The notes beneath the pieces were generated by a model that saw only the letters and a list, made by a program, of their open reading frames with translations, had not been told where the DNA came from and did not search any database. Source: a virus (lineage: Duplodnaviria; Heunggongvirae; Uroviricota; Caudoviricetes). From it: a DNA stretch of 13,956 nucleotides. How positions within the stretch are numbered: position 1 is the stretch's first letter; every line of letters starts with the position of its first letter. The DNA is taken from IMG/VR virus record IMGVR_UViG_2671181040_000015, one strand, 5' to 3'. Shown here piece by piece: positions 1 to 13,956 of the stretch. A program made the translations under genes and the position numbers.

Positions 1-570
1 ACAATGCTTAATGCGCTGGCAGGTAAACAACCGCTGGACAATACGCTTACCAATTTGAGTGGAAAGGATGTAGCTGGTCTTCTCGCATACCTTGGTTTGG
101 GAGAAGGCTCTGCATTGCCTGTTGGTGTGCCTGTTCCGTGGCCTTCAGCCACTCCGCCAACAGGCTGGCTGAAATGCAATGGTGCGGCTTTTTCTGCTGA
201 AGAATACCCGGAACTGGCAAAGGCTTACCCGACAAATAAATTGCCTGATTTACGCGGTGAATTTATTCGCGGCTGGGATGACGGGCGCGGGGTTGATGTT
301 GGGCGTGCAATCTTATCATCGCAGGGCGATGCCATCAGAAATATAATTGGCAAGTTTGGTAATACTCAATTGTACCCAAGTATCTATTGTGATGGTGCAT
401 TTGGCGTCACTGTTGAGAATGTGTCACAAACTTTAGGATTAACTCTTGCGCCTTCAGGGGCAGGTAATGGGACTGTAAACTTTAGCTTTGATGCATCTAA
501 AATCGTTCCTGTTGCCACTGAAAACCGGCCGCGCAACGTCGCATTTAACTTCATTGTGAGGGCTGCATAA
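1..570 (+). CDS. Tail-fibre protein, 3' portion (5' partial, continues upstream of the window); 1..105 is the end of the constant shaft (Sc), 106..570 the variable receptor-binding C-terminus (Sv1)
   Basis: The frame is open from base 1 (ORF track 4..570) with stop TAA at 568-570. The C-terminal domain (PVGVPVPWPSATPPTGWLKCNGAAF...RGEFIRGWDDGRGVD) resembles Mu S / P2 H / e14 Stf-type fibre tips. Crossover site A lies inside the coding sequence. Confidence 0.9.
   Translation, partial: TMLNALAGKQPLDNTLTNLSGKDVAGLLAYLGLGEGSALPVGVPVPWPSATPPTGWLKCNGAAFSAEEYPELAKAYPTNKLPDLRGEFIRGWDDGRGVDVGRAILSSQGDAIRNIIGKFGNTQLYPSIYCDGAFGVTVENVSQTLGLTLAPSGAGNGTVNFSFDASKIVPVATENRPRNVAFNFIVRAA
80..105 (+). other. 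Crossover site A (gix/hix/cix-like 26-bp invertase site): TTCTCGCATACC-TT-GGTTTGGGAGAA
   Basis: Two imperfect 12-bp inverted half-sites around a 2-bp TT core. The half-site form TTCTCnnAAACC resembles remembered hixL/gixL half-sites. Sequence identity with copies B and C ends exactly at the inner edge of the site (position 105/106). Confidence 0.75.
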
Positions 571-1172
571 TGGCACAGGCAAAATTAAACAGCGAACTGA
601 TTGCCACGGTAGCGGGTGATGTGACCGTGTTTAACTACGACAGCAAGACGCGGGAATATCTTTCCACATCAACTGAATATCTTGCTGTTGGCGTCGGTAT
701 CCCGGCATGTTCTTGTTTAGATGCACCAGGTATACATAAAGCTGGTTATGCAATCTGCCGTTCAGCAGATTTAAACTCATGGGAGTATGTGCCAGACCAT
801 CGCGGTGAAATCATCTATAACACCGAAACGGGAGACGCCAAAGAAATCACAACTCCGGGTGATTACCCTGAAAATACAACCACTATCGCCCCGTTAACGC
901 CATTCGATAAATGGGATGGTGAGAAATGGGTGACCGATACTGAGGCACAGCATTGCGCCGCAGTAGACGCGGCAGAAGCACAGCGTCAGTCACTGATTGA
1001 TACTGCAATGGCTTCCATCAGTCTGATTCAACTGAAATTGCAGGCCGGGCGGAAGCTGACGCAGGCAGAAACCACCCGACTTAACGCTGTGCTGGATTAC
1101 ATTGACGCGGTGACGGCAACAGATACCAGCACCGCGCCGGATGTCATCTGGCCTGAACTGCCGGAGGCGTAG
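570..1172 (+). CDS. Tail-fibre assembly chaperone Tfa1 (partner of Sv1)
   Basis: 200-aa ORF whose ATG overlaps the fibre stop (TAATG at 568-572). Its C-terminus (LDYIDAVTATDTSTAPDVIWPELPEA) shares the motif seen in the convergent Tfa2 (LDYLDALELVDTSGAPDIEWP), and it sits in the position of Mu U / P2 G. Confidence 0.85.
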   Translation: MAQAKLNSELIATVAGDVTVFNYDSKTREYLSTSTEYLAVGVGIPACSCLDAPGIHKAGYAICRSADLNSWEYVPDHRGEIIYNTETGDAKEITTPGDYPENTTTIAPLTPFDKWDGEKWVTDTEAQHCAAVDAAEAQRQSLIDTAMASISLIQLKLQAGRKLTQAETTRLNAVLDYIDAVTATDTSTAPDVIWPELPEA

Positions 1173-1584
1173 GCCATTCAATATCTGGCGCACCGGAAGT
1201 ATCGACCAGTTCCAGTGCGTCCAGGTAATCCAGCCACAAATTATATTGCGCCAGTTCGTCACCTTTCAGACGACCAATAGCCGCTTTACCAGGCCATTGT
1301 TTACTGTTCATATAATCGTTGGCCTGATTAATCAATTGCTGCTTCTCCAGTTCGGCTGCAGCAATTTGTTCCTCATGTGTTGGTGGTGGAATTTCGGACC
1401 ATGCAGGAAAACCATTTTCTCCAGCGATACGGATTTTTCCTTTCGGCGGTAATCCGGAAAACTCAATATACACTTGCTCATCAACTTCAACAGCATCATC
1501 TGGCCATGAGTCAGCTTGAGTGTAATCCTCTTTCATCTCCAGCGGATAGAAAGAGTTTGTAGTCGCGGAATATATGTAATTCAT
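1144..1584 (-). CDS. Alternative tail-fibre assembly chaperone Tfa2 (partner of Sv2)
   Basis: 146-aa ORF convergent with Tfa1, with 3' ends overlapping by 29 bp (1144-1172). It shares the Tfa-like C-terminal motif and lies 21 bp downstream of Sv2 on the minus strand, with a GGAG Shine-Dalgarno (rc of 1589-1594). Confidence 0.8.
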   Translation of the reverse strand: MNYIYSATTNSFYPLEMKEDYTQADSWPDDAVEVDEQVYIEFSGLPPKGKIRIAGENGFPAWSEIPPPTHEEQIAAAELEKQQLINQANDYMNSKQWPGKAAIGRLKGDELAQYNLWLDYLDALELVDTSGAPDIEWPTPPAVQAR

Positions 1585-1958
1585 TTTTCACTCCATATAG
1601 CTAAATTAACAGCCTAACGCTAAAAATGAAGCGCCGAGGCCAGGAGTACTGGCTCTGGATATAAATTTAACCGGGTCGGGACTAAAACCTGCACAGGCAA
1701 TATAACCAACAGCCCCGCTATCTGGTGTGTAGTCTTGTGAGACCAAAACACGCAGACATCTGTTTGGAAATGCAATCGGGAAATGGGTTACTACATCCTG
1801 TGCAATGCCTGGTGCGCCGATTGAGCCCCACTGAAGAATAAAACCTGATGGTAATTTTTGATATCCAGTACCTGAAACAGAAAGCGTGAAGCTACCCATA
1901 TCAGGTATCTGATTCGCCCCTGTCCCTACATTCCTTTTAGCCGCTTCTCCCAAACCAA
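1408..1958. repeat. Direct repeat copy 1 (551 bp): tfa2 5' end (59 codons), intergenic spacer, Sv2 cassette and inner half of site B
   Basis: Matches 2632..3182 at a constant offset of 1224 bp; spot checks and the identical encoded peptides show no mismatch. Identity ends at 1407/2631 and at 1959/3183. Confidence 0.9.
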
Positions 1959-2808
1959 GGTATGCGAGAAGACCAGCTACATCCTTTCCACTCAAATTGG
2001 TAAGCGTATTGTCCAGCGGTTGTTTACCTGCCAGCGCATTAAGCATTGTCGTGGCAAAGTTCGGATCATTCCCCAGTGCCGCCGCCAGTTCGTTCAGTGT
2101 ATCCAGTGCAGCAGGTGCAGAACCCACCATTCCTGCAATCGCCGATTTCACAAAAGCCGTAGTGGCAATCTGTGTATTGTTGACCGACTGCGCCGCCGTG
2201 GGGGCTGTTGGCGTTCCGGTGAGTGCCGGACTCGACAACGGTGCTTTTAGTGCCAGCGCATTGTTAATGGTGGTACTGAAATTCGGATCATTGTTAATGG
2301 CTGCGGCTATTTCTTTCAGCGTGTCCAGCGTGGCTGGCGCACCATTAATAAGGGCCGTCAGTGCCGCCTGTACAAACGCAGTGGTCGCAACCTGCGTGGT
2401 ATTATTCCCCGCCGCTGGCGTTGGCGCTTTGGGGGTTCCGGTAAATGTCGGGCTGGCTTTTGGCGCGTACTGTGAATGCGGGTCCGGTGCGGCAAGATGT
2501 TTTGCCATCTGATCATCCGCGTACACCTTCAGCTCCAGTGCCTTGTCATCCACATACTTGCGGGTTGCCAGCACTACAGCAGGGTCGATTTTCAGGGTGA
2601 TATTGTCCGTGCTGCTGGTAATCAGCACCAAAAAACCATTTTCTCCAGCGATACGGATTTTTCCTTTCGGCGGTAATCCGGAAAACTCAATATACACTTG
2701 CTCATCAACTTCAACAGCATCATCTGGCCATGAGTCAGCTTGAGTGTAATCCTCTTTCATCTCCAGCGGATAGAAAGAGTTTGTAGTCGCGGAATATATG
2801 TAATTCAT
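1606..2808 (-). CDS. Chimeric 400-aa ORF: Tfa2 N-terminus (59 aa, 2808..2632), inverted tail-fibre shaft segment (about 225 aa, 2631..1971), site B, and Sv2 receptor-binding tip (1944..1606)
   Basis: Continuous ORF in the track. The N-terminal 59 aa are identical to Tfa2. The middle carries fibre-shaft repeats ([10 protein letters not shown]...LDTL.E.AAA...NDPNF). The last 35 codons before site B are identical to window positions 1..105. The C-terminus AAKRNVGTG...LALGC is a distinct fibre tip. Whether it is expressed as such is uncertain. Confidence 0.55.
1945..1970 (-). other. Crossover site B (identical to site A, inverted orientation)
   Basis: The reverse complement of 1945..1970 is TTCTCGCATACC-TT-GGTTTGGGAGAA, with the core at 1957-1958. 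Confidence 0.75.
1945..2049 (-). repeat. Inverted repeat of window positions 1..105 (end of the tail-fibre constant region, including the crossover site); it probably extends further as 2050..2631 pairs with sequence upstream of the window
   Basis: The reverse complement of 1945..2049 equals 1..105 (position p pairs with 2050-p). The identity reaches the window edge, so its true length cannot be determined here. Confidence 0.9.
2034..2495 (-). repeat. Two in-frame tandem repeat units of 231 bp (77 codons) within the inverted fibre-shaft segment
   Basis: The motif GCGCATT..AAATTCGGATCATT recurs at 2034 and 2265. The encoded peptide units are [42 protein letters not shown] and [42 protein letters not shown]. 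Confidence 0.7.
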
Positions 2809-3182
2809 TTTTCACTCCATATAGCTAAATTAACAGCCTAACGCTAAAAATGAAGCGCCGAGGCCAGGAGTACTGGCTCTGGATATAAATTTAACCGGGT
2901 CGGGACTAAAACCTGCACAGGCAATATAACCAACAGCCCCGCTATCTGGTGTGTAGTCTTGTGAGACCAAAACACGCAGACATCTGTTTGGAAATGCAAT
3001 CGGGAAATGGGTTACTACATCCTGTGCAATGCCTGGTGCGCCGATTGAGCCCCACTGAAGAATAAAACCTGATGGTAATTTTTGATATCCAGTACCTGAA
3101 ACAGAAAGCGTGAAGCTACCCATATCAGGTATCTGATTCGCCCCTGTCCCTACATTCCTTTTAGCCGCTTCTCCCAAACCAA
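2632..3182. repeat. Direct repeat copy 2 (551 bp), a duplicate of 1408..1958
   Basis: Constant offset of 1224 bp from copy 1. Contains a second tfa2 start with RBS (ATG rc at 2806-2808) and a second Sv2 cassette ending at site C. Confidence 0.9.
2830..3168 (-). other. Duplicate Sv2 cassette (promoterless fibre-tip segment adjacent to site C); it would become the fibre C-terminus after inversion between sites A and C
   Basis: Encodes AAKRNVGTG...LALGC, identical to the tip encoded at 1944..1606, with stop (rc) at 2830-2832. The ATG of the 130-aa track ORF (3222) lies outside the repeat and is probably fortuitous. Confidence 0.7.
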
Positions 3183-3194
3183 CGTTTATGAAAA
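3169..3194 (-). other. Crossover site C: reverse complement TTTTCATAAACG-TT-GGTTTGGGAGAA
   Basis: The inner half-site and core are identical to A and B. The outer half-site differs (TTTTCATAAACG) but keeps the hix-like form. It lies 55 bp upstream of the invertase start, as gix/cix sites lie beside gin/cin. Confidence 0.7.
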
Positions 3195-3249
3195 TGCAGA
3201 GATAATGGCTAACTGGCATCATCCCCGGTTTTTATTCAGGGGATTGATC
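3195..3249 (+). promoter_or_regulatory. Candidate invertase promoter and RBS region abutting site C
   Basis: GATAAT (3201-3206) is a possible -10 and AGGGGA (3238-3243) a Shine-Dalgarno 6 nt before the ATG. No convincing -35 was found, so the promoter call is weak. Confidence 0.3.
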
Positions 3250-3816
3250 ATGCTTATTGGCTATGTACGCGTGTCAACAAATGACCAGAACACCGATTTG
3301 CAACGTAATGCACTGAACTGCGCGGGATGTGAGCGGATTTTTGAGGATAAAATCAGTGGCACTAAGTCCGACAGACCGGGGCTTAAAAAACTGCTCAGGA
3401 CACTATCGGCAGGAGACACTCTGGTTGTCTGGAAGCTGGACAGACTGGGGCGCAGTATGCGGCATCTTGTTACGCTGATAGAAGAGTTGCGCCAGCGTGG
3501 CGTGAATTTCCGAAGCCTGACTGACAGTATTGATACCAGTACCCCAATGGGCCGTTTCTTTTTTCATGTTATGGGTGCCCTGGCTGAAATGGAACGCGAA
3601 CTGATAGTTGAACGTACCAGGGCAGGGCTGGCTGCAGCTCGTGCCAAAGGCAGAGTAGGTGGACGCCGTCCTAAGTTGACCACCGAACAGTGGGCACAGA
3701 TTGGGCGTTTACTTGAGGCCGGAGAATCAAGACAGCGTATTGCACTGATTTTTGATGTAGGCGTTTCTACTATTTATAGAAAATTTCCGGCAAATAAGAG
3801 CAATGAATCTCCCTGA
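3250..3816 (+). CDS. Serine DNA invertase of the Hin/Gin/Cin/Pin family
   Basis: 188 aa from the ATG at 3250 (the track ORF starts earlier at 3205). N-terminus MLIGYVRVSTNDQNTDLQRNAL carries the catalytic serine motif of resolvase/invertase enzymes, with a C-terminal helix-turn-helix region (GESRQRIALIFDVGVSTIYRK). It lies immediately beside an invertible fibre segment. Confidence 0.9.
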   Translation: MLIGYVRVSTNDQNTDLQRNALNCAGCERIFEDKISGTKSDRPGLKKLLRTLSAGDTLVVWKLDRLGRSMRHLVTLIEELRQRGVNFRSLTDSIDTSTPMGRFFFHVMGALAEMERELIVERTRAGLAAARAKGRVGGRRPKLTTEQWAQIGRLLEAGESRQRIALIFDVGVSTIYRKFPANKSNESP

Positions 3817-3864
3817 ATCAGCATTATTTTGATTATCCCTGCAAGCAGACAAATACCGTCATTT

Positions 3865-3882
3865 TGTGTGAATAACGGTACA
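3865..3882 (+). promoter_or_regulatory. P2-type late promoter activator site (TGT-N12-ACA dyad) for the FI operon (PF-like)
   Basis: TGT (3865-3867), 12 nt, ACA (3880-3882), centred about 85 bp upstream of the FI ATG. This is the spacing expected for the Ogr-dependent dyad centred near -55 with a leader of about 30 nt. Confidence 0.55.
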
Positions 3883-3958
3883 ACTGCGCTTAGCTGTTTG
3901 TCAGGCACAATCACTTCAACATAGGGCGAAGCCTAATCCAATCAGGAGGTTCGCCACT

Positions 3959-5131
3959 ATGGCTCAGGATTACCACCACGGGGTGCGCGTTGTTGAAGTC
4001 AACGAAGGCACCCGATCCATTACCACGGTGAGCACCGCCATCGTGGGTATGATCTGCACGGGCGATGATGCCGATGCAAAAATGTTTCCTCTTAATAAAC
4101 CCGTGCTGATCACTGATGTGCTGACTGCCAGCGGTAAAGCGGGTGAGTCCGGTACTCTGGCCCGTTCGCTGGATGCCATCGCTGACCAGGCAAAACCCGT
4201 GACCGTTGTTGTGCGTGTGCCGCAGGGTGAAACGGAAGACGAAACCACGACCAATATCATCGGCGCTGTGACTGCTGAAGGTAAAAAAACAGGCATGAAA
4301 GCCCTGCTATCTGCCCAGTCACAGCTCGGCGTTAAACCGCGCATTCTCGGCGTGCCAGGTCACGATAACAAAGCCGTTGCGACTGAGTTGCTGAGCGTGG
4401 CGCAAAGCCTGCGTGGGTTTGCTTACCTGTCAGCGTATGGCTGCAAGACGGTACAGGAGGCGATCACTTACCGTGAAAACTTCAGCCAGCGCGAAGGAAT
4501 GCTGATCTGGCCCGACTTTACTGGCTGGGATACGGTGTTGAATGCCGAAGCAACGGCATATGCCACCGCCCGTGCGCTTGGTCTGCGCGCCAAAATTGAT
4601 GAGCAGACCGGGTGGCACAAAAGCCTGTCCAACGTGGGCGTGAACGGTGTCACCGGAATTTCTGCAGATGTGTTCTGGGATCTGCAGGACCCGGCAACCG
4701 ATGCGGGACTGCTTAACCAGAACGACGTCACCACGCTTATCCGCAAAGACGGTTTCCGCTTCTGGGGTTCCCGCTGCCTGAGTGATGACCCGCTCTTTGC
4801 CTTCGAAAACTACACCCGCACGGCGCAGGTACTGATGGACACGATGGCAGAAGCGCATATGTGGGCGGTGGACAAACCGCTGAACCCGTCGCTGGCCCGC
4901 GACATTATCGAAGGTATCCGCGCCAAAATGCGCAGCCTGGTCAGTCAGGGGTATCTCATTGGTGGTGATTGCTGGCTGGACGAGTCGGTGAACGACAAAG
5001 ACACGCTGAAAGCCGGAAAACTCACCATCGACTATGACTACACGCCAGTGCCGCCACTTGAAAATCTGATGCTGCGTCAGCGCATCACCGATCAGTACCT
5101 GGTGAATTTTGCCAGCCAGGTCAGCGCGTAA
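3959..5131 (+). CDS. FI: Contractile tail sheath protein (P2 FI homologue)
   Basis: 390 aa, AGGAGG Shine-Dalgarno at 3944-3949. The sequence ([31 protein letters not shown]...) is close to the remembered P2 FI sequence. Confidence 0.9.
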
Positions 5132-5140
5132 GGGGACAAC

Positions 5141-5656
5141 ATGGCTTTACCACGCAAATTAAAACATCTGAACCTGTTTAACGACGGGAACAACTGGCAG
5201 GGGATCGTAGAGTCTTTGACGCTGCCGAAATTCACCCGCAAATATGAGAAGTATCGCGGCGGCGGAATGCCGGGTGCAGTGGATGTGGATCTGGGGCTTG
5301 ATGACAGTGCTCTGGACACAGAATTTTCCATTGGTGGTACTGAACTGCTGCTGTTTAAACAGATGGGCAAAGCCACGGTGGATGGCATCCAGTTGCGCTT
5401 TACCGGCTCTATCCAGCGTGATGATACCGGGGAAGTGCAGGCCGTGGAGCTTGTGGTACGTGGACGTCACAAAGAAGTGGATTCCGGCGAGTGGAAGACG
5501 GGCGAAAGCAACACCACCAAAGTGACCAGTACCAACAGCTACGCGAAGCTGACCATCAATGGTGAGGTGCTCTATGAAGTGGACCTCATCAACATGGTGG
5601 AAATCGTGGACGGTGTGGACCTGATGGAAGCACACCGTAACGCCCTCGGCCTCTGA
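5141..5656 (+). CDS. FII: Tail tube protein (P2 FII homologue)
   Basis: 171 aa, immediately downstream of the sheath gene, with the size and position of P2 FII. Confidence 0.85.
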   Translation: MALPRKLKHLNLFNDGNNWQGIVESLTLPKFTRKYEKYRGGGMPGAVDVDLGLDDSALDTEFSIGGTELLLFKQMGKATVDGIQLRFTGSIQRDDTGEVQAVELVVRGRHKEVDSGEWKTGESNTTKVTSTNSYAKLTINGEVLYEVDLINMVEIVDGVDLMEAHRNALGL

Positions 5657-5667
5657 TGTATCTGAAC

Positions 5668-5685
5668 GGCGCGGAATACCGCGCC
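5668..5685 (+). other. GC-rich hairpin between FII and E (GGCGCGG-AATA-CCGCGCC), with no U-tract
   Basis: Perfect 7-bp stem with a tetraloop, 12 nt after the FII stop. It may be an RNA stability or attenuation element separating highly expressed sheath/tube genes from E-T-U-D. Confidence 0.4.
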
Positions 5686-5710
5686 AGAACCTAATTTACA
5701 GGACAGCAAA

Positions 5711-6013
5711 ATGAGCGATAAGCAGACTGAAAAGACCATTCAACTGGATACCCCTATCAAGCGTGGTAAAACAGAAATCACCGAAATTGTGCTGCGCAAA
5801 CCGCAGTCCGGTGCGCTGCGCGGTACACGCCTGCAGGCGATTATGGATATGGATGTGAACGCGATGATGATCGTGATCCCCCGCATCTCCAGCCCGGCAC
5901 TGACTGCACAGGAAATTGCAGAGATGGACCCGGCAGATCTCACTGCTATGTCGGTTGAGGTTGTCACTTTTTTGTTGAAGAAGTCGGTGCTTGCCGGTTT
6001 ACCGACAGCCTGA
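5711..6013 (+). CDS. E: Tail assembly chaperone E (P2 gpE homologue)
   Basis: 100-aa ORF between the tube and tape-measure genes. It contains the T6G slippery heptamer near its 3' end. Confidence 0.8.
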   Translation: MSDKQTEKTIQLDTPIKRGKTEITEIVLRKPQSGALRGTRLQAIMDMDVNAMMIVIPRISSPALTAQEIAEMDPADLTAMSVEVVTFLLKKSVLAGLPTA

Positions 6014-6147
6014 CGGTTGACGATCTGGTGGCAGATATCGCCACCATTTTTCACTGGCCGCCATCCGTTACTGACGTTATGCCGCTGACCGAAGTGCTGG
6101 AATGGCGGTATAAAGCGATTCAGAGAAGCGGGGCCAACGATGAGTGA
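5711..6147 (+). CDS. E+E' fusion product made by a programmed -1 ribosomal frameshift at 5968-5974
   Basis: The heptamer T_TTT_TTG is in the X_XXY_YYZ register of the E frame. The -1 frame stays open from 5974 to TGA at 6145-6147 and overlaps the T start at 6140, as in P2 E/E'. Confidence 0.65.
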
Positions 6148-9100
6148 TAATAACCTGCGCCTGCAGGTCATTCTTAATGCGGTTGACAAACTCACCCGCC
6201 CATTCCGTGCTGCACAGGCCAGTTCGAAAGAGCTGGCTGGCGCAATCAGAAACTCCCGTGACGCATTAAAGCAACTCAATCAGGCGGGTAACAGCCTGGA
6301 AAAATTTCGCAAGCTGCAGGCCGATAACAAGAAGTTAGGCGACAGGCTGAACTATGCCAGACAGAAGGCTAATTTGCTTAGCTCTGAGCTGGAGGCGATG
6401 GAACAACCATCACAACGGCACCTTGTGGCTTTAGGTCGGCAAACGCTGGCAGTCCAACGCCTGGAAGAACAACAAAAATATTTGCAGAAGCAAACGGCGC
6501 TTGTGCGTGCAGAACTGTACCGGGCGGGAATTTCTGCGAAAGATGATGCGGGAGCAACTGCCCGTTTAGCCCGTGAAACATCACGTTATAACCAGGAATT
6601 GTCGAAACAGGAGGCGCGCCTGAAGCGACTGGGGGAAGCTCAGCGCAGGATGAATGCGGCGCGTGCCAGTTATGCCCGTTCGCTGGAGGTGCGCGATCGT
6701 ATTGCAGGAGCCGGAGCCACCACCACGGCTGCAGGGCTGGCAATGGGTGCGCCAGTGATGGCGGCAGTAAAAAGCTATACCAGCATGGAAGATGCCATGA
6801 AAGGTGTGGCAAAGCAGGTCAATGGTCTGCGTGACGATAATGGCAACCGCACTGCACGTTTTTATGAAATGCAGGATGCCATCAAGGCTGCCAGCGAACA
6901 GTTGCCGATGGAAAACGGTGCGGTGGACTTCGCTGCACTGGTTGAAGGTGGGGCGCGCATGAACGTCGCAAACCCTGACGACAGCTGGGAAGACCAGAAA
7001 CGTGACCTGCTGGCCTTCGCCAGCACGGCAGCAAAGGCGGCAACAGCCTTTGAGTTGCCAGCGGATGAACTGTCAGAAAGTCTGGGGAAAATCGCCCAGC
7101 TCTACAAAATCCCTACCCGCAATATTGAACAGCTCGGCGATGCGCTGAACTATCTGGATGATAACGCCATGTCGAAAGGGGCAGACATCATTGATGTGAT
7201 GCAACGTCTGGGCGGTGTGGCTGACCGTCTGGATTATCGTAAAGCGGCGGCGCTGGGTTCCACCTTCCTGACACTGGGCGCTGCGCCAGAGGTTGCAGCC
7301 AGTGCAGCAAACGCGATGGTGCGTGAATTGTCCATTGCCACCATGCAAAGCAAGAGTTTCTTTGAAGGAATGAATCTGCTGAAACTCAATCCTGAGGTGA
7401 TTGAAAAGCAGATGACGAAGGATGCGATGGGAACCATCCAGCGCGTGCTGGAGAAGGTGAACGCACTGCCGCAGGATAAGCGCCTGTCTGCCATGACCAT
7501 GTTGTTTGGTAAAGAGTTTGGCGATGATGCGGCGAAACTGGCAAACAACTTGCCGGAACTGCAGCGCCAGCTAAAACTGACAGCGGGCAATGATGCGCTC
7601 GGTTCGATGCAGAAAGAATCCGACATTAACAAGGACTCACTTTCTGCGCAGTGGTTGCTGGTTAAAACCGGAGCGCAGAACACCTTCAGCAGCCTGGGCG
7701 AAACGCTGCGCCAGCCGCTGATGGATATTCTGTACACGGTGAAAAGCATCACGGGGGCGTTGCGCCGCTGGGTGGAAGCTAACCCGGAACTGACAGGCAC
7801 ACTGGTGAAAGTAGCGGCTGTTGTGGCTGCGGTTACCGTAGGCCTCGGCACCTTAGCGGTGGCGTTGGCTGCAGTGCTGGGGCCGCTGGCAGTGATCCGT
7901 CTGGGATTCTCTGTGCTGGGTATCAAAACGTTACCTTCCGTTACGGCAGCAGTAACACGAACCAGCAGCGCGTTGTCCTGGCTGGCGCACCACTTGCACT
8001 GCTGCGACGCGGGCTTGCTTCAACGGGCAGCGCAGCGGGTTTACTTACTGCGCCGTTGTCGTCTTTGCGCCGCACGGCATCACTGACGGGAAATGTCCTG
8101 AAAACTGTAGCAGGTGCGCCGGTTGCACTTTTGCGGTCTGGATTATCCGGTTTACGTGCTGTTGCTGTGATGTTTATGAATCCACTGGCAGCACTACGCG
8201 GCGGGCTGACTGCCGCAGGCGCGGTGCTACGAGTACTGGCATCCGGTCCGCTGGTGATGCTGCGCGTTGCCCTGTATGCCGTGTCTGGTCTGTTAGGTGC
8301 TCTGCTCAGTCCGATAGGTCTTGTGGTTACTGCACTGGCGGGTGTGGCGCTGGTTGTCTGGAAATACTGGCAACCCATCACCGCGTTTCTCGGTGGTGTG
8401 GTGGAGGGATTCAAAGCAGCGGCAGGTCCCGTCAGTGCCGCGTTCGAACCACTTAAGCCTGTGTTCCAGTGGATTGGCGATAAAGTGCAGGCGTTGTGGG
8501 GCTGGTTTACTGATCTGCTGACACCCGTTAAGTCGACTTCTGCCGAACTGCAGAGCGCAGCGGAAATGGGGCGACGATTCGGGGAGGCGTTGGCGGAAGG
8601 GCTGAATATGGTTATGCATCCGCTGGACTCCCTCAAATCCGGCGTATCCTGGTTGCTGGAGAAACTCGGCGTTGTCAGTAAAGAGGCCGCAAAGGCGAAA
8701 CTACCGGAAAGTGTGACGCGTCAGCAACCTGGGACGGTGAATACAGACGGTAAAGTGATGATGCCATCGGGTGGTTTTCCGTCATGGGGATATGGCTTTG
8801 CGGGGATGTATGACAGCGGCGGCTATATCCCGCGCGGGCAGTTTGGCATCGTCGGTGAAAACGGGCCGGAAATTGTTAACGGCCCGGCAAATGTGACCAG
8901 CCGGAGAAATACAGCTGCACTGGCTGCCGTTGTTGCCGGAATGATGGGCGTTGCTGCCGCGCCAGCAGAGCTTCCACCGTTGCACCCTTTGGCACTTCCC
9001 GCGAAAGGCGGCGAAGCGATGGTGAGTCGTGCAGCCACTGTGCCGCCCGTTCACCGGATTGAGGCACCGACGCAGATCATCATTCAGACGCAGCCAGGAC

Positions 9101-9213
9101 AAAGTGCGCAGGATATTGCGCGGGAGGTGGCACGCCAGCTTGATGAACGTGAACGCAGGCTGAAGGCAAAAGCCAGGAGTAACTACAGCGATCAGGGGGG
9201 ATACGACGCATGA
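6140..9213 (+). CDS. T: Tail tape measure protein (P2 T homologue), reading frame interrupted: the track shows two overlapping ORFs, 6140..8086 and 8056..9213, that need a -1 shift to join
   Basis: Both ORFs look like tape-measure sequence (coiled-coil and Ala/Leu-rich hydrophobic stretches). The last 30 residues of the first ORF and the first 50 residues of the second frame are low-complexity junk, which places the break roughly between 7950 and 8000. Confidence 0.75.
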
Positions 9214-9695
9214 TGATGGTGCTGGGATTGTACGTGTTTATGCTGCGCACCGTTCCGTATCAGGAACTGCAGTATCAACGCAGCTGGCGACATGCGTCAA
9301 ACAGCCGGGTAAACCGTCGTCCGTCCACGCAGTTTCTGGGACCGGACAACGACATGCTGACGCTTTCCGGTGTTCTTATGCCGGAGATAACAGGCGGCAG
9401 GCTGTCGTTGCTGGCACTGGAGCAGATGGCAGAACAGGGGAAAGCATGGCCCCTGATTGAAGGTAGCGGCACGATTTACGGCATGTTTGTGATTGAGGGA
9501 CTGAATCAGACTAAAACGGAGTTTTTCCGCAACGGTATGCCGCGCAGGATTGAGTTCACCCTGTCGCTAAAACGGGTGGATGAATCCCTGTCCGATATGT
9601 TCGGTGATCTCAGTACTCAACTGAATAATCTGCAGGACACGGCAACGTCTGCCTTAAGCGATATCAGTAAAACGGTGGGAGGGCTGCTGTCGTGA
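9210..9695 (+). CDS. U: Tail protein U (P2 gpU homologue)
   Basis: 161 aa; its ATG overlaps the T stop; size and position match P2 U. Confidence 0.8.
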   Translation: MMMVLGLYVFMLRTVPYQELQYQRSWRHASNSRVNRRPSTQFLGPDNDMLTLSGVLMPEITGGRLSLLALEQMAEQGKAWPLIEGSGTIYGMFVIEGLNQTKTEFFRNGMPRRIEFTLSLKRVDESLSDMFGDLSTQLNNLQDTATSALSDISKTVGGLLS

Positions 9696-10792
9696 ATTTC
9701 AGCTCTGAACTGCTTAACAAAGGCAACAAAACTCCGGCATTCAGCATCAGTATTGAAGGCAGGGATATAACCACTGTGCTGGACAACCGCCTGATGGGGC
9801 TTACGCTGACGGATAACCGGGGCTTTGAAGCGGACCAGCTTGATCTGGAGCTGGACGACGCTGACGGAAAAATCGTGCTGCCGCGCCGTGGTGCAGTCAT
9901 TACGCTGGCGCTGGGCTGGAAGGGGCAGCCGCTTTTCCCGAAAGGGGCATTCACGGTGGACGAGATTGAACACACTGGCGCACCGGACCGCCTGACTATC
10001 CGGGCGCGAAGTGCTGATTTTCGGGAAACCCTGAATACCCGCCGTGAAAAATCGTGGCACAAGACCACAGTTGGGGAAGTGGTGAAGGAAATAGCCGCGC
10101 GGCACAAGCTGAAGATGGCACTGGGTAAAGACCTGTCGGATAAGCCCGTGGAGCATATAGACCAGACTAATGAGAGTGACGGCAGTTTTCTGATGCGGCT
10201 GGCGCGCCAGTACGGTGCTATTGCATCGGTGAAAAATGGCAATCTGTTATTCATCCGGCAGGGTCAGGGTAAAAGCGCCAGCGGTAAACCACTGCCGGTG
10301 ATCACTATCACACGTAAGGACGGCGACAGTCACCGCTTTACCCTGGCAGATCGCGGAGCTTACACGGGCGTAATTGCCAGCTGGTTGCATACCCGCGAAC
10401 CCGCGAAGAAAGAAAGCACTACGGTGAAGCGTAAGCGCAGGACTAAGAAGCAGAAGAAAGAGCCGGAAGCGAAGCAGGGCGATTACCTGGTGGGGACGGA
10501 TGAAAACGTGCTGGTACTTAATCGCACCTATGCTAATCGGAGTAACGCCGAACGGGCAGCGAAAATGCAGTGGGAACGCCTGCAACGCGGCGTTGCGTCA
10601 TTCTCGCTACAACTGGCGGAAGGGCGGGCAGATCTCTACACGGAAATGCCAGTGAAAGTCAGTGGCTTTAAACAGCCGATAGATGATGCGGAATGGAGCA
10701 TTACGACTCTGACGCATACCGTCAGCCCGGATAACGGTTTTACGACCAGTCTGGAGCTTGAAGTGAGGATTGATGATTTCGAAATGGAATGA
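9692..10792 (+). CDS. D: Tail protein D (P2 gpD homologue)
   Basis: 366 aa, GTG start overlapping the U stop, last gene of the tail operon before ogr. Confidence 0.8.
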   Translation: MNFSSELLNKGNKTPAFSISIEGRDITTVLDNRLMGLTLTDNRGFEADQLDLELDDADGKIVLPRRGAVITLALGWKGQPLFPKGAFTVDEIEHTGAPDRLTIRARSADFRETLNTRREKSWHKTTVGEVVKEIAARHKLKMALGKDLSDKPVEHIDQTNESDGSFLMRLARQYGAIASVKNGNLLFIRQGQGKSASGKPLPVITITRKDGDSHRFTLADRGAYTGVIASWLHTREPAKKESTTVKRKRRTKKQKKEPEAKQGDYLVGTDENVLVLNRTYANRSNAERAAKMQWERLQRGVASFSLQLAEGRADLYTEMPVKVSGFKQPIDDAEWSITTLTHTVSPDNGFTTSLELEVRIDDFEME

Positions 10793-10882
10793 TTCTTCGC
10801 AATGGAGAACTTTTAAGTTTGCAAAATGGAATAATGCGGTATCATTATTGTGAATTTAGCAAAAATGGGGAGAACTCGAAAA

Positions 10883-11101
10883 ATGATGATTTGCCCACTG
10901 TGTGGAAGTGCCGCCCATACTCGCAGCAGTTTTCAGGTATCTTCATTGACCAAAGAGCGTTACAACCAGTGCCAGAACATTAACTGCAGCCATACTTTTG
11001 TTACCCATGAAACTTTTGTTCGTTCGATTGCAACGCCAAAAGAGTCAAATCCGGTTCAGCCGCATCCAATGAAATCAGGACAGGTGGCGCTCTCTCTTTG
11101 A
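10883..11101 (+). CDS. ogr: Ogr/Delta-type zinc-finger late transcription activator
   Basis: 72 aa from the ATG at 10883: MMICPLCGSAAHTRSS...CQNINCSHTF has the Cys-X2-Cys...Cys-X4-Cys zinc finger and the Ogr length. The longer track ORF starting at 10850 is not used. Confidence 0.9.
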   Translation: MMICPLCGSAAHTRSSFQVSSLTKERYNQCQNINCSHTFVTHETFVRSIATPKESNPVQPHPMKSGQVALSL

Positions 11102-11181
11102 CGCTGTCGCCATTTTGTCGCCATCGTTAAAAAACAGTGCTTCTAACATCATGATTTTAAACAGCATAAATTTCAGGCAAC

Positions 11182-11224
11182 AAAAAACCCATCAACCTTG
11201 AACCGAAATGGCGGGGTTGATGGG
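11182..11224 (-). terminator. Rho-independent terminator on the minus strand, downstream of ybjL
   Basis: Perfect 10-bp stem (11188-11197 and 11215-11224, CCCATCAACC / GGTTGATGGG) followed on the minus strand by a run of 6 T (complement of A at 11182-11187). Confidence 0.6.
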
Positions 11225-11336
11225 CTCCACAAAATGGGGACATCAAAGAAAAGCAGTGGCACTAATTAAGACTGATGCCCTGCGGAAAAGTTCTGCGGTT
11301 GTGCAAAAAAATTTCATTTTCAGGGCAACTTCAGTT

Positions 11337-13022
11337 TTATCCTAATCCAGGCCATACCATGACGATGATTGTCCCTGCCAGCGTCAGCAGGACGTTGGCG
11401 ATTGCGTAGGTGCCCGCATAGCCCAGCGCAGGGATGTTACTGCGAGCTGTATCACTGATGATCTCCATTGCCGGCGCGCAGGTGCGTGCGCCCATCATTG
11501 CGCCGAACAACAGTGCGCGGTTCATTCGCAATACATAAGCACCGAACAAGAAACAGATAACCACGGGCACAAGACTGACAATTAATCCGGCAATCAACAT
11601 CTGACCGCCAATCGCGCCCAGGCCGTTATTAATACCGCTACCGGCGCTCAGACCAACGCCTGCCATAAACACCATCAAGCCGAACTCTTTCACCATGCTT
11701 AATGCACCTTGCGGAATGTAACCGAAGGTCGGGTGGTTAGCACGCATAAAGCCCAGCATAATTCCGGCGAATAACAACCCGGCAGCGTTCCCCATGCCGA
11801 AACTGAATGTGCTGAACTGGAAGGTGATCATCCCGATCATCAGCCCAATAACAAAGAAGGCGCAAAATGCCAGCAGGTCAGTGACCTGGCTGTGAATCGA
11901 GATAAAGCCGATGCGATCGGCGATGGTTTTTACGCGACGGGCATCACCGCTGACTTGTAAAACGTCACCTTTGTTAAGCACGACGTTGTCATCTATCGGC
12001 ATCTCAATCTGGCTACGAATGACGCGGTTAAGGAAGCAACCGTGATCGGTCAACTTCAGTTGTGCGAGACGTTTACCTACAGCGTTATGGTTTTTAACGA
12101 CCACTTCTTCAGTGACGATACGCATGTCGAGAAGGTCACGATCGAAAACTTCTTTACCGTTACGGAAGCTGGGATCGAGTCGGGCATGGGCGTCGGGATA
12201 GCCTACCAACGCTATTTCATCGCCCATTTGTAGCACGGCATCACCGTCTGGATTTGCAAGAATCCCGTTACGTCGAATACGTTCAATGTAGCAGCCGGTT
12301 TGTCGATAAATACCCAGTTCACGCAGATTTTTGCCGTCGGTCCAGGCCACGAGCTCCGGGCCGACGCGATAGGCGCGGATCACCGGTAAATAAACCTTAC
12401 GGTTGGCATCAGTGTCCAGGCCACGTTCGCGGGCGATTTGCTGGGCGCTGGTCTGTAAGTCCTGATGCTGCAATTTCGGCAAGTAACGCGCACCAACAAT
12501 CAAACTCACCAGACCGATTAAATAGGTTAAGGCATACCCGAGGCTCAGATTATCCAGTGCCAGTGAGAGCTGCCTGCTTTCCATGCCGGAATGACGCAGT
12601 GTATCGCCAGCACCGACCAGAACCGGTGTCGACGTCATAGAGCCTGCTAACATACCGGCCGTCAGGCCAATATCCCAGCCAAACAGCTTACCTAACCCTA
12701 AGGCGATCACCAGCGCACTGCCAACCATCACCAGTGCTAACATTAGGTAATTTTTCCCATCGCGAAAAAAAATGGAAAAAAAGTTCGGTCCGGCTTCGAC
12801 CCCGACGCAGAAAATAAACAGCATAAAGCCAAGATTAAGCGCATCGGTGTTAATGCTGAAATGTTGTTGGCCTAATAACAGCGATACGACTAAAACGCCA
12901 ATGGAATTACCCAGTTGGATCGAACCAAGTCGTAACTTTCCGAGACATAGCCCAAGCGCGAGGACCACAAATAATAACAGAATGTAATTCCCATTTAACA
13001 ATTCGGCGACGTTTATATTCAC
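11337..13022 (-). CDS. ybjL: Putative transporter YbjL (YidE/YbjL family, membrane domains plus RCK_C-type regulatory domains)
   Basis: 561 aa, N-terminus [39 protein letters not shown] start; followed by ybjM and grxA as in the E. coli chromosome. Confidence 0.9.
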
Positions 13023-13291
13023 GGAGGCTAACTTCTTGTTTACTAGTAAGCTGTTGAAAGAAATGGTAATTTACGATAATGTTTTTTACCAGAATTCAGG
13101 GCGCAGATTCATTCAGCGCACCTAAACGATAGTAAAGTAACAATATATTTTACTAGTGTAATCACATTAGGTATCAACGGCTATATGAATTGCGTTGGCC
13201 TATATTAGCATGGAATGCGAAGCGGCTTTATCTTACTGAACGCCACACTGGCGAAAAATGTGTTCGATAGACGCAGTGTCAGGAGGAACGA

Positions 13292-13669
13292 GTGAAACAT
13301 AAACAACGTTGGGCGGGGGCAATCTGCTGTTTTGTCCTCTTCATTGTGGTGTGCCTTTTTCTGGCGACGCACATGAAAGGCGCTTTTCGGGCTGCCGGGC
13401 ATCCTGAAATCGGCTTGCTATTTTTCATTCTTCCTGGAGCAGTCGCCAGCTTCTTTTCACAGCGTAGAGAAGTCCTGAAACCTCTGTTTGGCGCAATGCT
13501 GGCGGCACCCTGTTCGATGCTCATTATGCGGCTGTTTTTTTCACCGACGCGCTCATTCTGGCAAGAGCTGGCATGGTTACTAAGCGCGGTGTTCTGGTGT
13601 GCGCTGGGGGCACTGTGTTTCTTATTTATCAGTAGTTTGTTTAAACCACAGCACAGAAAAAATCAGTAA
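13292..13669 (+). CDS. ybjM: Inner membrane protein YbjM
   Basis: 125-aa hydrophobic ORF, GTG start with AGGAGG Shine-Dalgarno (13281-13286), divergent from ybjL and convergent with grxA. Confidence 0.8.
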   Translation: MKHKQRWAGAICCFVLFIVVCLFLATHMKGAFRAAGHPEIGLLFFILPGAVASFFSQRREVLKPLFGAMLAAPCSMLIMRLFFSPTRSFWQELAWLLSAVFWCALGALCFLFISSLFKPQHRKNQ

Positions 13670-13689
13670 AGCCCTCAACGCGAGGGCTT
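13669..13689. terminator. Hairpin between the convergent ybjM and grxA genes (AAGCCCTC-AACGC-GAGGGCTT)
   Basis: 8-bp stem with a 5-nt loop between the two stop codons (13667-13669 and 13699-13701). The U-tracts are weak on both strands. Confidence 0.4.
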
Positions 13690-13698
13690 GTCAGACGA

Positions 13699-13956
13699 TC
13701 AGGCGTCCAGATTTTCTTTCACCCATGCAGCAAAATCGGTATAGCCGCCGATATGTTGCTGATCGACAAAAATCTGCGGCACGGTTTCTACGGGTTTACC
13801 TGCCTTTTGTTGTAGATCTTCTTTAGTGATCCCTTCCGCACGAATATCTACATACTGATACTGAAAATCATCGCGTTCATTGCTCAATTTCTCAGCCAGA
13901 TCTTTTGCACGCACACAGTAAGGGCAACCCGAACGACCAAAAATAACGGTTTGCAT
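13699..13956 (-). CDS. grxA: Glutaredoxin 1
   Basis: 85 aa, MQTVIFGRSGCPYCVRAK with the CPYC active site. The gene is complete; its ATG is at the window edge (13954-13956 rc). Confidence 0.95.
   Translation of the reverse strand: MQTVIFGRSGCPYCVRAKDLAEKLSNERDDFQYQYVDIRAEGITKEDLQQKAGKPVETVPQIFVDQQHIGGYTDFAAWVKENLDA

Follow-up and report, generated by a model that had tools for sequence, protein, structure and literature searches.

The stretch of DNA analysed here, hereafter the window, is 13,956 nucleotides long and is a P2-like E. coli prophage carrying an invertible tail-fibre segment together with a serine DNA invertase of the Pin/Gin type. Cassettes for tail-fibre C-terminal parts and assembly proteins fill positions 4–3222, the invertase gene occupies 3250–3816 on the plus strand, and the tail sheath gene starts at 3959. 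Over positions 3100–3900 the window is 100% identical to E. coli SL124, in which the element adjoins ybjL and the P2 late genes lie in their usual order. The same interval is covered to at least 80% in 760 of 5426 complete E. coli genomes, and several Klebsiella and Escherichia P2-like phages match it at 95–97% identity. The host is E. coli, a species that possesses Fis.

The invertase is a protein of 188 amino acids that matches the Pfam families Resolvase (PF00239, 2e-53) and, in its C-terminal helix-turn-helix, HTH_7 (PF02796, 1e-15). Its best solved relative is Gin (E-value 8e-93), and its amino acid identity is 85% to PinE, 77% to Cin, 74% to Gin and 66% to Salmonella Hin. Alignment with Gin, Cin and Pin (MLIGYVRVS) places the start codon at the ATG at 3250 and not at 3205, where the mechanically called ORF begins. 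The ORF is intact, with the catalytic Ser9 in the invariant RVST motif. Residues K46, K47, R50, Q150, R153 and L154 correspond to Hin K47, R48, K51, Q151, R154 and L155. The Hin residues K47, K/R48, K/R51, Q151, R154 and L155 are reported to be specific to Fis/enhancer-dependent invertases and to contact Fis and the enhancer (PMC3798978). Additionally, the window's protein has the wild-type residues, H106 and M114, at the two positions altered in the Fis-independent mutants Hin H107Y and Gin M114V (PMC3798978, PMC3575834).

Adjoining the invertase gene is crossover site C, TTCTCCCAAACCAACGTTTATGAAAA (3169–3194, plus strand), which consists of two 12-bp half-sites flanking the core AA at 3181–3182. 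This 26-bp sequence is unique in the window, was matched 0 times across 200 shuffles, and is identical to the e14 crossover site upstream of pinE. Its first 15 bases fall inside the published e14 P-segment repeat CCTTCTCCCAAACCAA (PMC12529663). Among close relatives site C varies in its inner half and in the flank beside it but not in its outer half; many different inner flanks stand against a constant outer half-site and leader. Since the ATG is that at 3250 and the site ends at 3194, the gap between them is 55 bp, the distance given in a preliminary description of this DNA.

The inverted-repeat partner of site C is site A (80–105), with the core TT on the plus strand. Both sites are intact and have matching cores, and they stand in inverted orientation because the cores read TT and AA. 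The junction predicted from A × C recombination was found at full length in 353 of the 5426 complete E. coli genomes, where it is annotated as a single continuous tail protein; therefore both orientations of the segment occur in nature. A further site in the window, site B, is a hybrid of the form expected as a product of A × C recombination and lies within an odd 1224-bp rearrangement of the invertible region. This rearrangement is absent from all complete E. coli genomes searched, and for that reason we rejected the reading of the three crossover sites as a true multi-site shufflon. The rearrangement would fit a switch that has become inactive in this prophage and an enhancer that is now a relic, as would the distal Fis-like core described below, which is weak by motif rules. 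We consider a dead switch very unlikely, however, as it is at odds with an intact invertase ORF that retains Ser9, with intact and inverted crossover sites, with the occurrence of both junction states across genomes, and with a hybrid site B that is itself the expected recombination product.

To place the enhancer of this switch, we used the P1 record, in which an "enhancer of Cin-mediated C-segment inversion" is annotated at 31678–31749; with the cin start at 31660, this corresponds to cin nucleotides +19 to +90. Because the invertase genes align without gaps across the annotated cin enhancer, its equivalent here is 3268–3339, which comprises codons 7–30 of the invertase gene. DNA identity over this interval is 87.5% to pin of e14, 78% to cin, 75% to hin and 72% to gin, and in every case exceeds that of the rest of the gene. 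The likeness to hin had been pointed out in the preliminary description, which also expected a Fis-dependent enhancer in the 5' coding region. The expectation is supported by two Fis-like cores, homology, geometry, synonymous constraint and the Fis-contact residues. Its placing at about 3262–3325, and in a region ending at 3330, needs correcting to 3268–3339 since both ends cut the distal core (3320–3334). Codons 8–22 encode VSTNDQNTDLQRNAL, as had been proposed.

We scored the window for Fis sites with an ad hoc encoding of published rules (PMC4784862) and not with a published weight matrix, such that a score by itself is weak evidence. The score rises with an A/T-rich centre, with a G at −7 and a C at +7, and with a pyrimidine-purine step across positions 4 and 3 in each half-site; it falls when position 3 is C or T, position 4 is A or position 8 is G. 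As a check, the known hin distal site ranks high, at 11.5–11.75. By this measure the interval holds a proximal 15-bp core, TGTCAACAAATGACC (3272–3286, centre 3279), with a score of 7.5 (top 1.3% of the window) and a distal one, GCGCGGGATGTGAGC (3320–3334, centre 3327), with a score of 6.75 (top 2.3%). Their centres lie exactly 48 bp apart, agreeing with the spacing of about 48 bp that had been anticipated, and no other such pair occurs within the invertase gene's first 120 nt. A convincing middle Fis site was not seen by this scoring.

Both cores occupy columns of the annotated or published cin, gin and hin enhancers. In the columns of the proximal core, the score is 7.5 in pin, gin, cin and hin alike. 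The columns of the distal core score 6.75 here, 7.0–8.0 in the three genes pin, gin and cin, and 11.5 in hin. Because homologous columns score alike, the Fis-like sites of the window match those of working phage systems. In the distal core the centre (GGATG) is G/C-rich and position −3 is a G, features that are poor for Fis by the published rules (PMC4784862); in this the core resembles the gin, cin and pin sites and not the strong hin distal site. It is followed by a conserved A/T tract, ATTTTT (3337–3342). The 33-bp spacer between the cores (3287–3319) contains the A/T-rich segments ATTTG (3296–3300) and TAATG (3306–3310), which are collinear with ATTTA and TAATG of the hin spacer, the segments that Hin's helix-B region comes close to (PMC3798978). 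The hin enhancer itself has two Fis dimer sites with centres 47 bp apart, about 100 bp from hixL (PMC3798978), and in gin the Fis sites are likewise inside the coding region (PMC3378877). From the centre of the crossover site to that of the proximal Fis site, we measured 97.5 bp here, 96.5 bp in Mu and e14, and 106.5 bp in hin.

Fis-like pairs this good at 47–49 bp occur in 7.5% of 100-bp windows of this sequence, and the motif pair alone is therefore weak evidence; at the nearby positions 3203, 3246 and 3350 the Fis score is higher. Support for the enhancer comes instead from homology, geometry and synonymous-site constraint. To quantify the last of these, we compared 88 invertase genes, dereplicated at 97% identity and drawn from viral contigs, genomes of many Enterobacterales, Mu, P1 and e14, and defined synonymous identity as the share of identical codons among pairs with the same amino acid. 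For codons 7–31 this value is 0.60, compared with 0.43 for the rest of the gene. Among 20000 random codon sets only 4 were as high as codons 7–31, and among 158 contiguous windows only 3. The difference is found within the Pin-like clade alone (0.77 versus 0.62) and in the distant clades (0.59 versus 0.42).

The constraint is concentrated at two places. Codons 9–12 reach 0.83–0.94, against 0.43 for the gene, and the third bases of these codons fall on −3, 0, +3 and +6 in the proximal core; the most fixed of these third positions are −3, 0 and +3, which are critical for Fis. A second peak falls on codons 30–31 (ATT TTT, 0.85–0.93), the A/T tract beside the distal core, and A/T tracts flanking a core are of the kind that stabilizes Fis complexes (PMC4784862). 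Additionally, when codons 6–33 were recoded synonymously, both sites were as good as those observed in only 0.4–0.6% of resamplings.

Conservation of the 5' coding region might in principle reflect only protein, codon or mRNA-structure constraint on an invertase that needs no enhancer. Synonymous constraint is common in 5' coding regions, and the first codons of this gene pair with the leader in a predicted fold; part of the constraint could indeed stem from translation-initiation or mRNA-structure effects. As a full explanation, though, this is most improbable. The peaks lie on or beside the Fis cores, at codons 9–12 and 30–31, and not at codons 1–5 alone, and in the proximal core it is the Fis-critical third positions that are most fixed. 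Moreover, the protein keeps the Fis-contact residues and lacks the known Fis-independent substitutions, and the interval lines up with the enhancer annotated in cin.

On the sequence evidence, 3268–3339 is very probably a recombinational enhancer that depends on Fis and serves the Pin/Gin-type inversion switch of this P2-like E. coli prophage. By every criterion that can be tested on sequence, the system belongs to the Hin/Gin/Cin/Pin family, with e14 Pin as its nearest member. In this family the enhancer measures about 60–70 bp and has its two Fis sites, spaced by 47–48 bp, in the 5' portion of the invertase gene; a loop of some 100 bp to the adjacent crossover site is native to hin, gin and pin. 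Fis binds the enhancer in these systems, and inversion relies on Fis, HU and supercoiling. We infer Fis binding, looping, activation and any autoregulation, the mechanism being taken over by homology. Under such a mechanism, low-level invertase would be made from a weak promoter abutting or overlapping site C, and invertase dimers would bind site C and its inverted partner site A. Two host Fis dimers would occupy the cores centred on 3279 and 3327, and the stretch of about 97 bp from site C to the nearer Fis site would loop, probably with the help of HU. The three DNA segments would then join in an invertasome, where Fis would switch the invertase to an active tetramer, and a single 180-degree subunit rotation would leave the tail-fibre cassette segment inverted.

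Of the known systems, the Pin/P-segment switch of e14, a cryptic prophage of E. coli K-12, is most similar. The 26-bp site is identical, the gap between site and ATG is 54 bp in e14 and 55 bp here, TGGCATCAT is common to both leaders, and crossover site and proximal Fis site lie the same distance apart (96.5 versus 97.5 bp), in addition to the 85% amino acid and 87.5% enhancer identities given above. In contrast to e14, the carrier here is a complete P2-like prophage beside ybjL, and its tail-fibre cassettes differ. The distal core also differs from that of e14 at two synonymous bases, with G instead of A at −3 and T instead of C at +3.

As in the Gin/sis system of Mu, the invertible segment does not include the invertase gene, whose 5' end adjoins a crossover site. 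The Fis sites of Mu gin are also inside the coding region (PMC3378877), its proximal core is identical to that of the window, its distal core has the same GGATG centre, and its site-to-Fis distance is 96.5 bp against 97.5 bp here. In contrast, Gin is only 74% identical at the amino acid level and 72% over the enhancer DNA, and the sequence of its crossover site is different. For gin, three Fis sites are reported, whereas our scoring gave no convincing middle site here. The annotated enhancer of P1 cin (+19 to +90) is collinear with the interval and 78% identical to it. It is situated differently, however, about 500 bp from the nearest crossover site compared with about 97 bp here, since it is the 3' end of cin that abuts cixL.

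In the Hin/hix system of Salmonella flagellar phase variation, the two Fis cores likewise fall in the same codons as here and keep the same distance from each other. Further features held in common are ATTTR and TAATG in the spacer, the Fis/enhancer-contact residues and a short loop to the adjacent site. Unlike the window's gene, hin is itself part of the segment that inverts, and what it controls is a promoter and not tail fibres. The distal Fis site of hin is strong (AAATT centre, 11.5 versus 6.75 here), and the hin loop is about 10 bp longer (106.5 bp).

If the interval is read as an enhancer, the widespread P2-like E. coli prophage invertases would belong to a complete Pin/Gin-type switch whose Fis enhancer lies within the gene, and tail-fibre switching should therefore track host Fis levels and so growth phase. 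The gene would also be a clean case of a regulatory DNA element that constrains synonymous sites within a gene, which bears on codon-based analyses and on the recoding of such genes. Beyond annotation, the significance of these results is small. Such invertases are annotated only as "recombinase family protein" and are found in hundreds of complete genomes.

The leader between site C and the start codon (3195–3249, plus strand) is constant DNA of 55 bp, and an inversion-independent promoter would therefore have to abut or overlap site C. From this, invertase occupancy of the site could affect the promoter, and autoregulation is plausible on geometric grounds. Overlap of crossover site and promoter has been discussed for gin and hin. 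A sigma-70 promoter scan of 3000–4000 gave no plus-strand match upstream of the gene, and an Rfam search of the same interval returned nothing credible.

The preliminary description had proposed a specific form of autoregulation, in which GATAAT (3201–3206, plus strand) is a possible −10 of the invertase gene and binding of the invertase to site C, which lies 7 bp upstream, could regulate transcription of that gene; we read this as repression. The hexamer is present where it was placed and matches TATAAT at 5 of 6 positions. A transcript starting near 3213 would include most of a predicted leader hairpin, and with 55 bp of constant DNA before the ATG a promoter near site C is geometrically forced. 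Nevertheless, we regard this assignment as unlikely. Neither a promoter call nor a −35 at 16–18 bp accompanies GATAAT; ACCAAC, CCAACG and AACCAA were read there by eye, and the bases before the hexamer are AGA and not the TG of an extended −10. Across 44 distinct leaders from genes at least 93% identical, the hexamer is GATAAT, GATAAC, GGTAAC or GATTAC, and the last three lose the final T, yet the neighbouring blocks GAAAATGCAG and CTAACTGGCATCAT are almost constant; e14 has AATAAC. A lone GATAAT is not more than chance. Our literature search, for which primary papers and reviews were outside reach, found neither a mapped promoter of pinE, gin or hin nor a report of autoregulation.

Two other −10-like hexamers are better conserved than GATAAT. 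GAAAAT (3190–3195, plus strand), read by eye, takes in the outer end of site C and one further base. It is constant in e14 and in all close relatives but one, which has GAGAAT; Mu has GATAAT at this place. CATCAT (3217–3222) is part of the block CTAACTGGCATCAT (3209–3222, plus strand), which also holds the 5' arm of the leader hairpin. This block is constant in nearly all close relatives (one starts GCAAC), and its TGGCAT(C/G)AT portion is common to e14 and Mu. GATAAT thus appears as just one of three weak −10-like candidates, among which sequence alone picks none.

Transcription of the invertase mainly by read-through, from the invertible segment or a late tail-fibre operon, would fit with a leader that has no recognisable promoter and with tail-fibre genes upstream (4–1172) on the same strand. 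Expression would then follow the orientation of the segment and the lytic cycle, but switching also takes place in lysogens, as is established for Mu and e14. A terminator-like hairpin with a T run (3211–3236), albeit a weak one of 6 pairs only, also lies shortly before the gene, and the constant leader is strongly conserved. We consider read-through as the main source of transcript quite unlikely.

The leader is predicted to fold into a hairpin spanning 3207–3262 on the plus strand (RNA fold of −19.6 kcal/mol, z −2.75; z −4.7 for a 60-nt version), in which the ribosome-binding site GGGGA (3239–3243) and the AUG (3250–3252) pair with 3215–3226. According to this model, the hairpin would matter only for a transcript that begins no further downstream than about 3207–3215. 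A family-wide thermodynamic hairpin signal is absent (mean z −0.27), and the signal is confined to the Pin/Gin-like clade and some Hin-like leaders. A tentative possibility is that the 55-bp leader acts as an expression-limiting module, in which an anti-Shine-Dalgarno element and a promoter in or abutting the crossover site together keep invertase very low. If so, the module would supply the very low invertase level that rare switching requires. In the predicted fold, the conserved TGGCAT box and C-run (3214–3226) pair with the ribosome-binding site and AUG, and anti-Shine-Dalgarno pairings of differing sequence would recur across Hin-, Gin- and Pin-type genes (CCCC/GGGG, TCCTCC/GGAGGA and TCCTT/AAGGA). 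Lastly, a sigma-54 reading of the TGGCAT box, made by eye, was rejected as the window and its clade have GG and not the required −12 GC; e14 does fit, with TGGCAT-N5-CTGCT.

The distance from the centre of the crossover site adjoining the invertase gene to the centre of the proximal Fis site differs between systems by steps of about one helical turn. In this window, the distance between the centre of site C (3181.5) and the centre of the proximal Fis core (3279) falls, together with those of Mu and e14, at 96.5–97.5 bp, while the corresponding distance for hin is 106.5 bp. For P1 cin, the proximal Fis centre lies 87.5 bp from a degenerate site-like sequence upstream of the gene (TTTCCACACATACTGGTTTTTGTTAA).

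To score Fis sites, we used an ad hoc encoding of published Fis-binding rules (PMC4784862), and the two highest scores near the invertase gene, 8.5 and 9.75, were obtained in the leader, at centres 3203 and 3246, respectively. These Fis-like centres are 43 bp apart and flank the conserved box, with the start codon overlapped.

The leader also contains a terminator-like hairpin at 3211–3236 (AACTGG...CCGGTT, followed by TTTATT), immediately 5' of the invertase ribosome-binding site. Gin/Pin-like leaders repeatedly carry, at this position, a G/C-rich element with a T run after it. This hairpin could insulate the invertase gene against read-through from the invertible segment. Additionally, a larger leader hairpin is predicted at 3207–3262, in which the ribosome-binding site (3239–3243) and the AUG are paired with the conserved TGGCATCATCCCC. 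The predicted fold has a free energy of −19.6 kcal/mol (z −2.75), and a 60-nt version of the hairpin gave a z of −4.7. Among 50 diverse invertase leaders, Shine-Dalgarno pairing to upstream bases was 0.465, compared with 0.371 when the upstream sequence was shuffled (Wilcoxon p 0.0025, calculated over sequences that are not independent of one another). The complementary pairs involved differ from clade to clade.

A comparison with this prophage as it occurs in E. coli SL124 shows 1224 bp of additional sequence in the invertible region of the window (1944–2631 and 2632–3181). Here, 'site B' (1945–1970) is the A/C hybrid crossover site, and after it the constant part of tail-fibre gene H is present as a copy in inverted orientation (1970–2630). 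The junction at 2630/2632 lies away from any crossover site, and the sequence beyond it duplicates 1408–1957. This junction was found in 0 of 5426 complete E. coli genomes. Either a rare duplication accounts for the extra 1224 bp, or the assembly is chimeric, built from a population of mixed orientation; the canonical element is one with two crossover sites.

The tape-measure gene (6140–9213) is divided in the window into two overlapping ORFs, 6140–8086 and 8056–9213, whereas in SL124 it is a single ORF of 3078 nt. Alignment of 2632–13956 to SL124 contains one gap, and thus the split may reflect a frameshift or a sequencing error.

Lastly, a TGT-N12-ACA motif (TGTGTGAATAACGGTACA) is present at 3865–3882, about 80 bp 5' of the tail sheath gene (3959), and resembles the activator site recognised by Ogr/Delta in the late promoters of P2. 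If 3865–3882 is such a site, the invertase gene would be an insertion that separates the tail-fibre genes from the sheath operon's late promoter.
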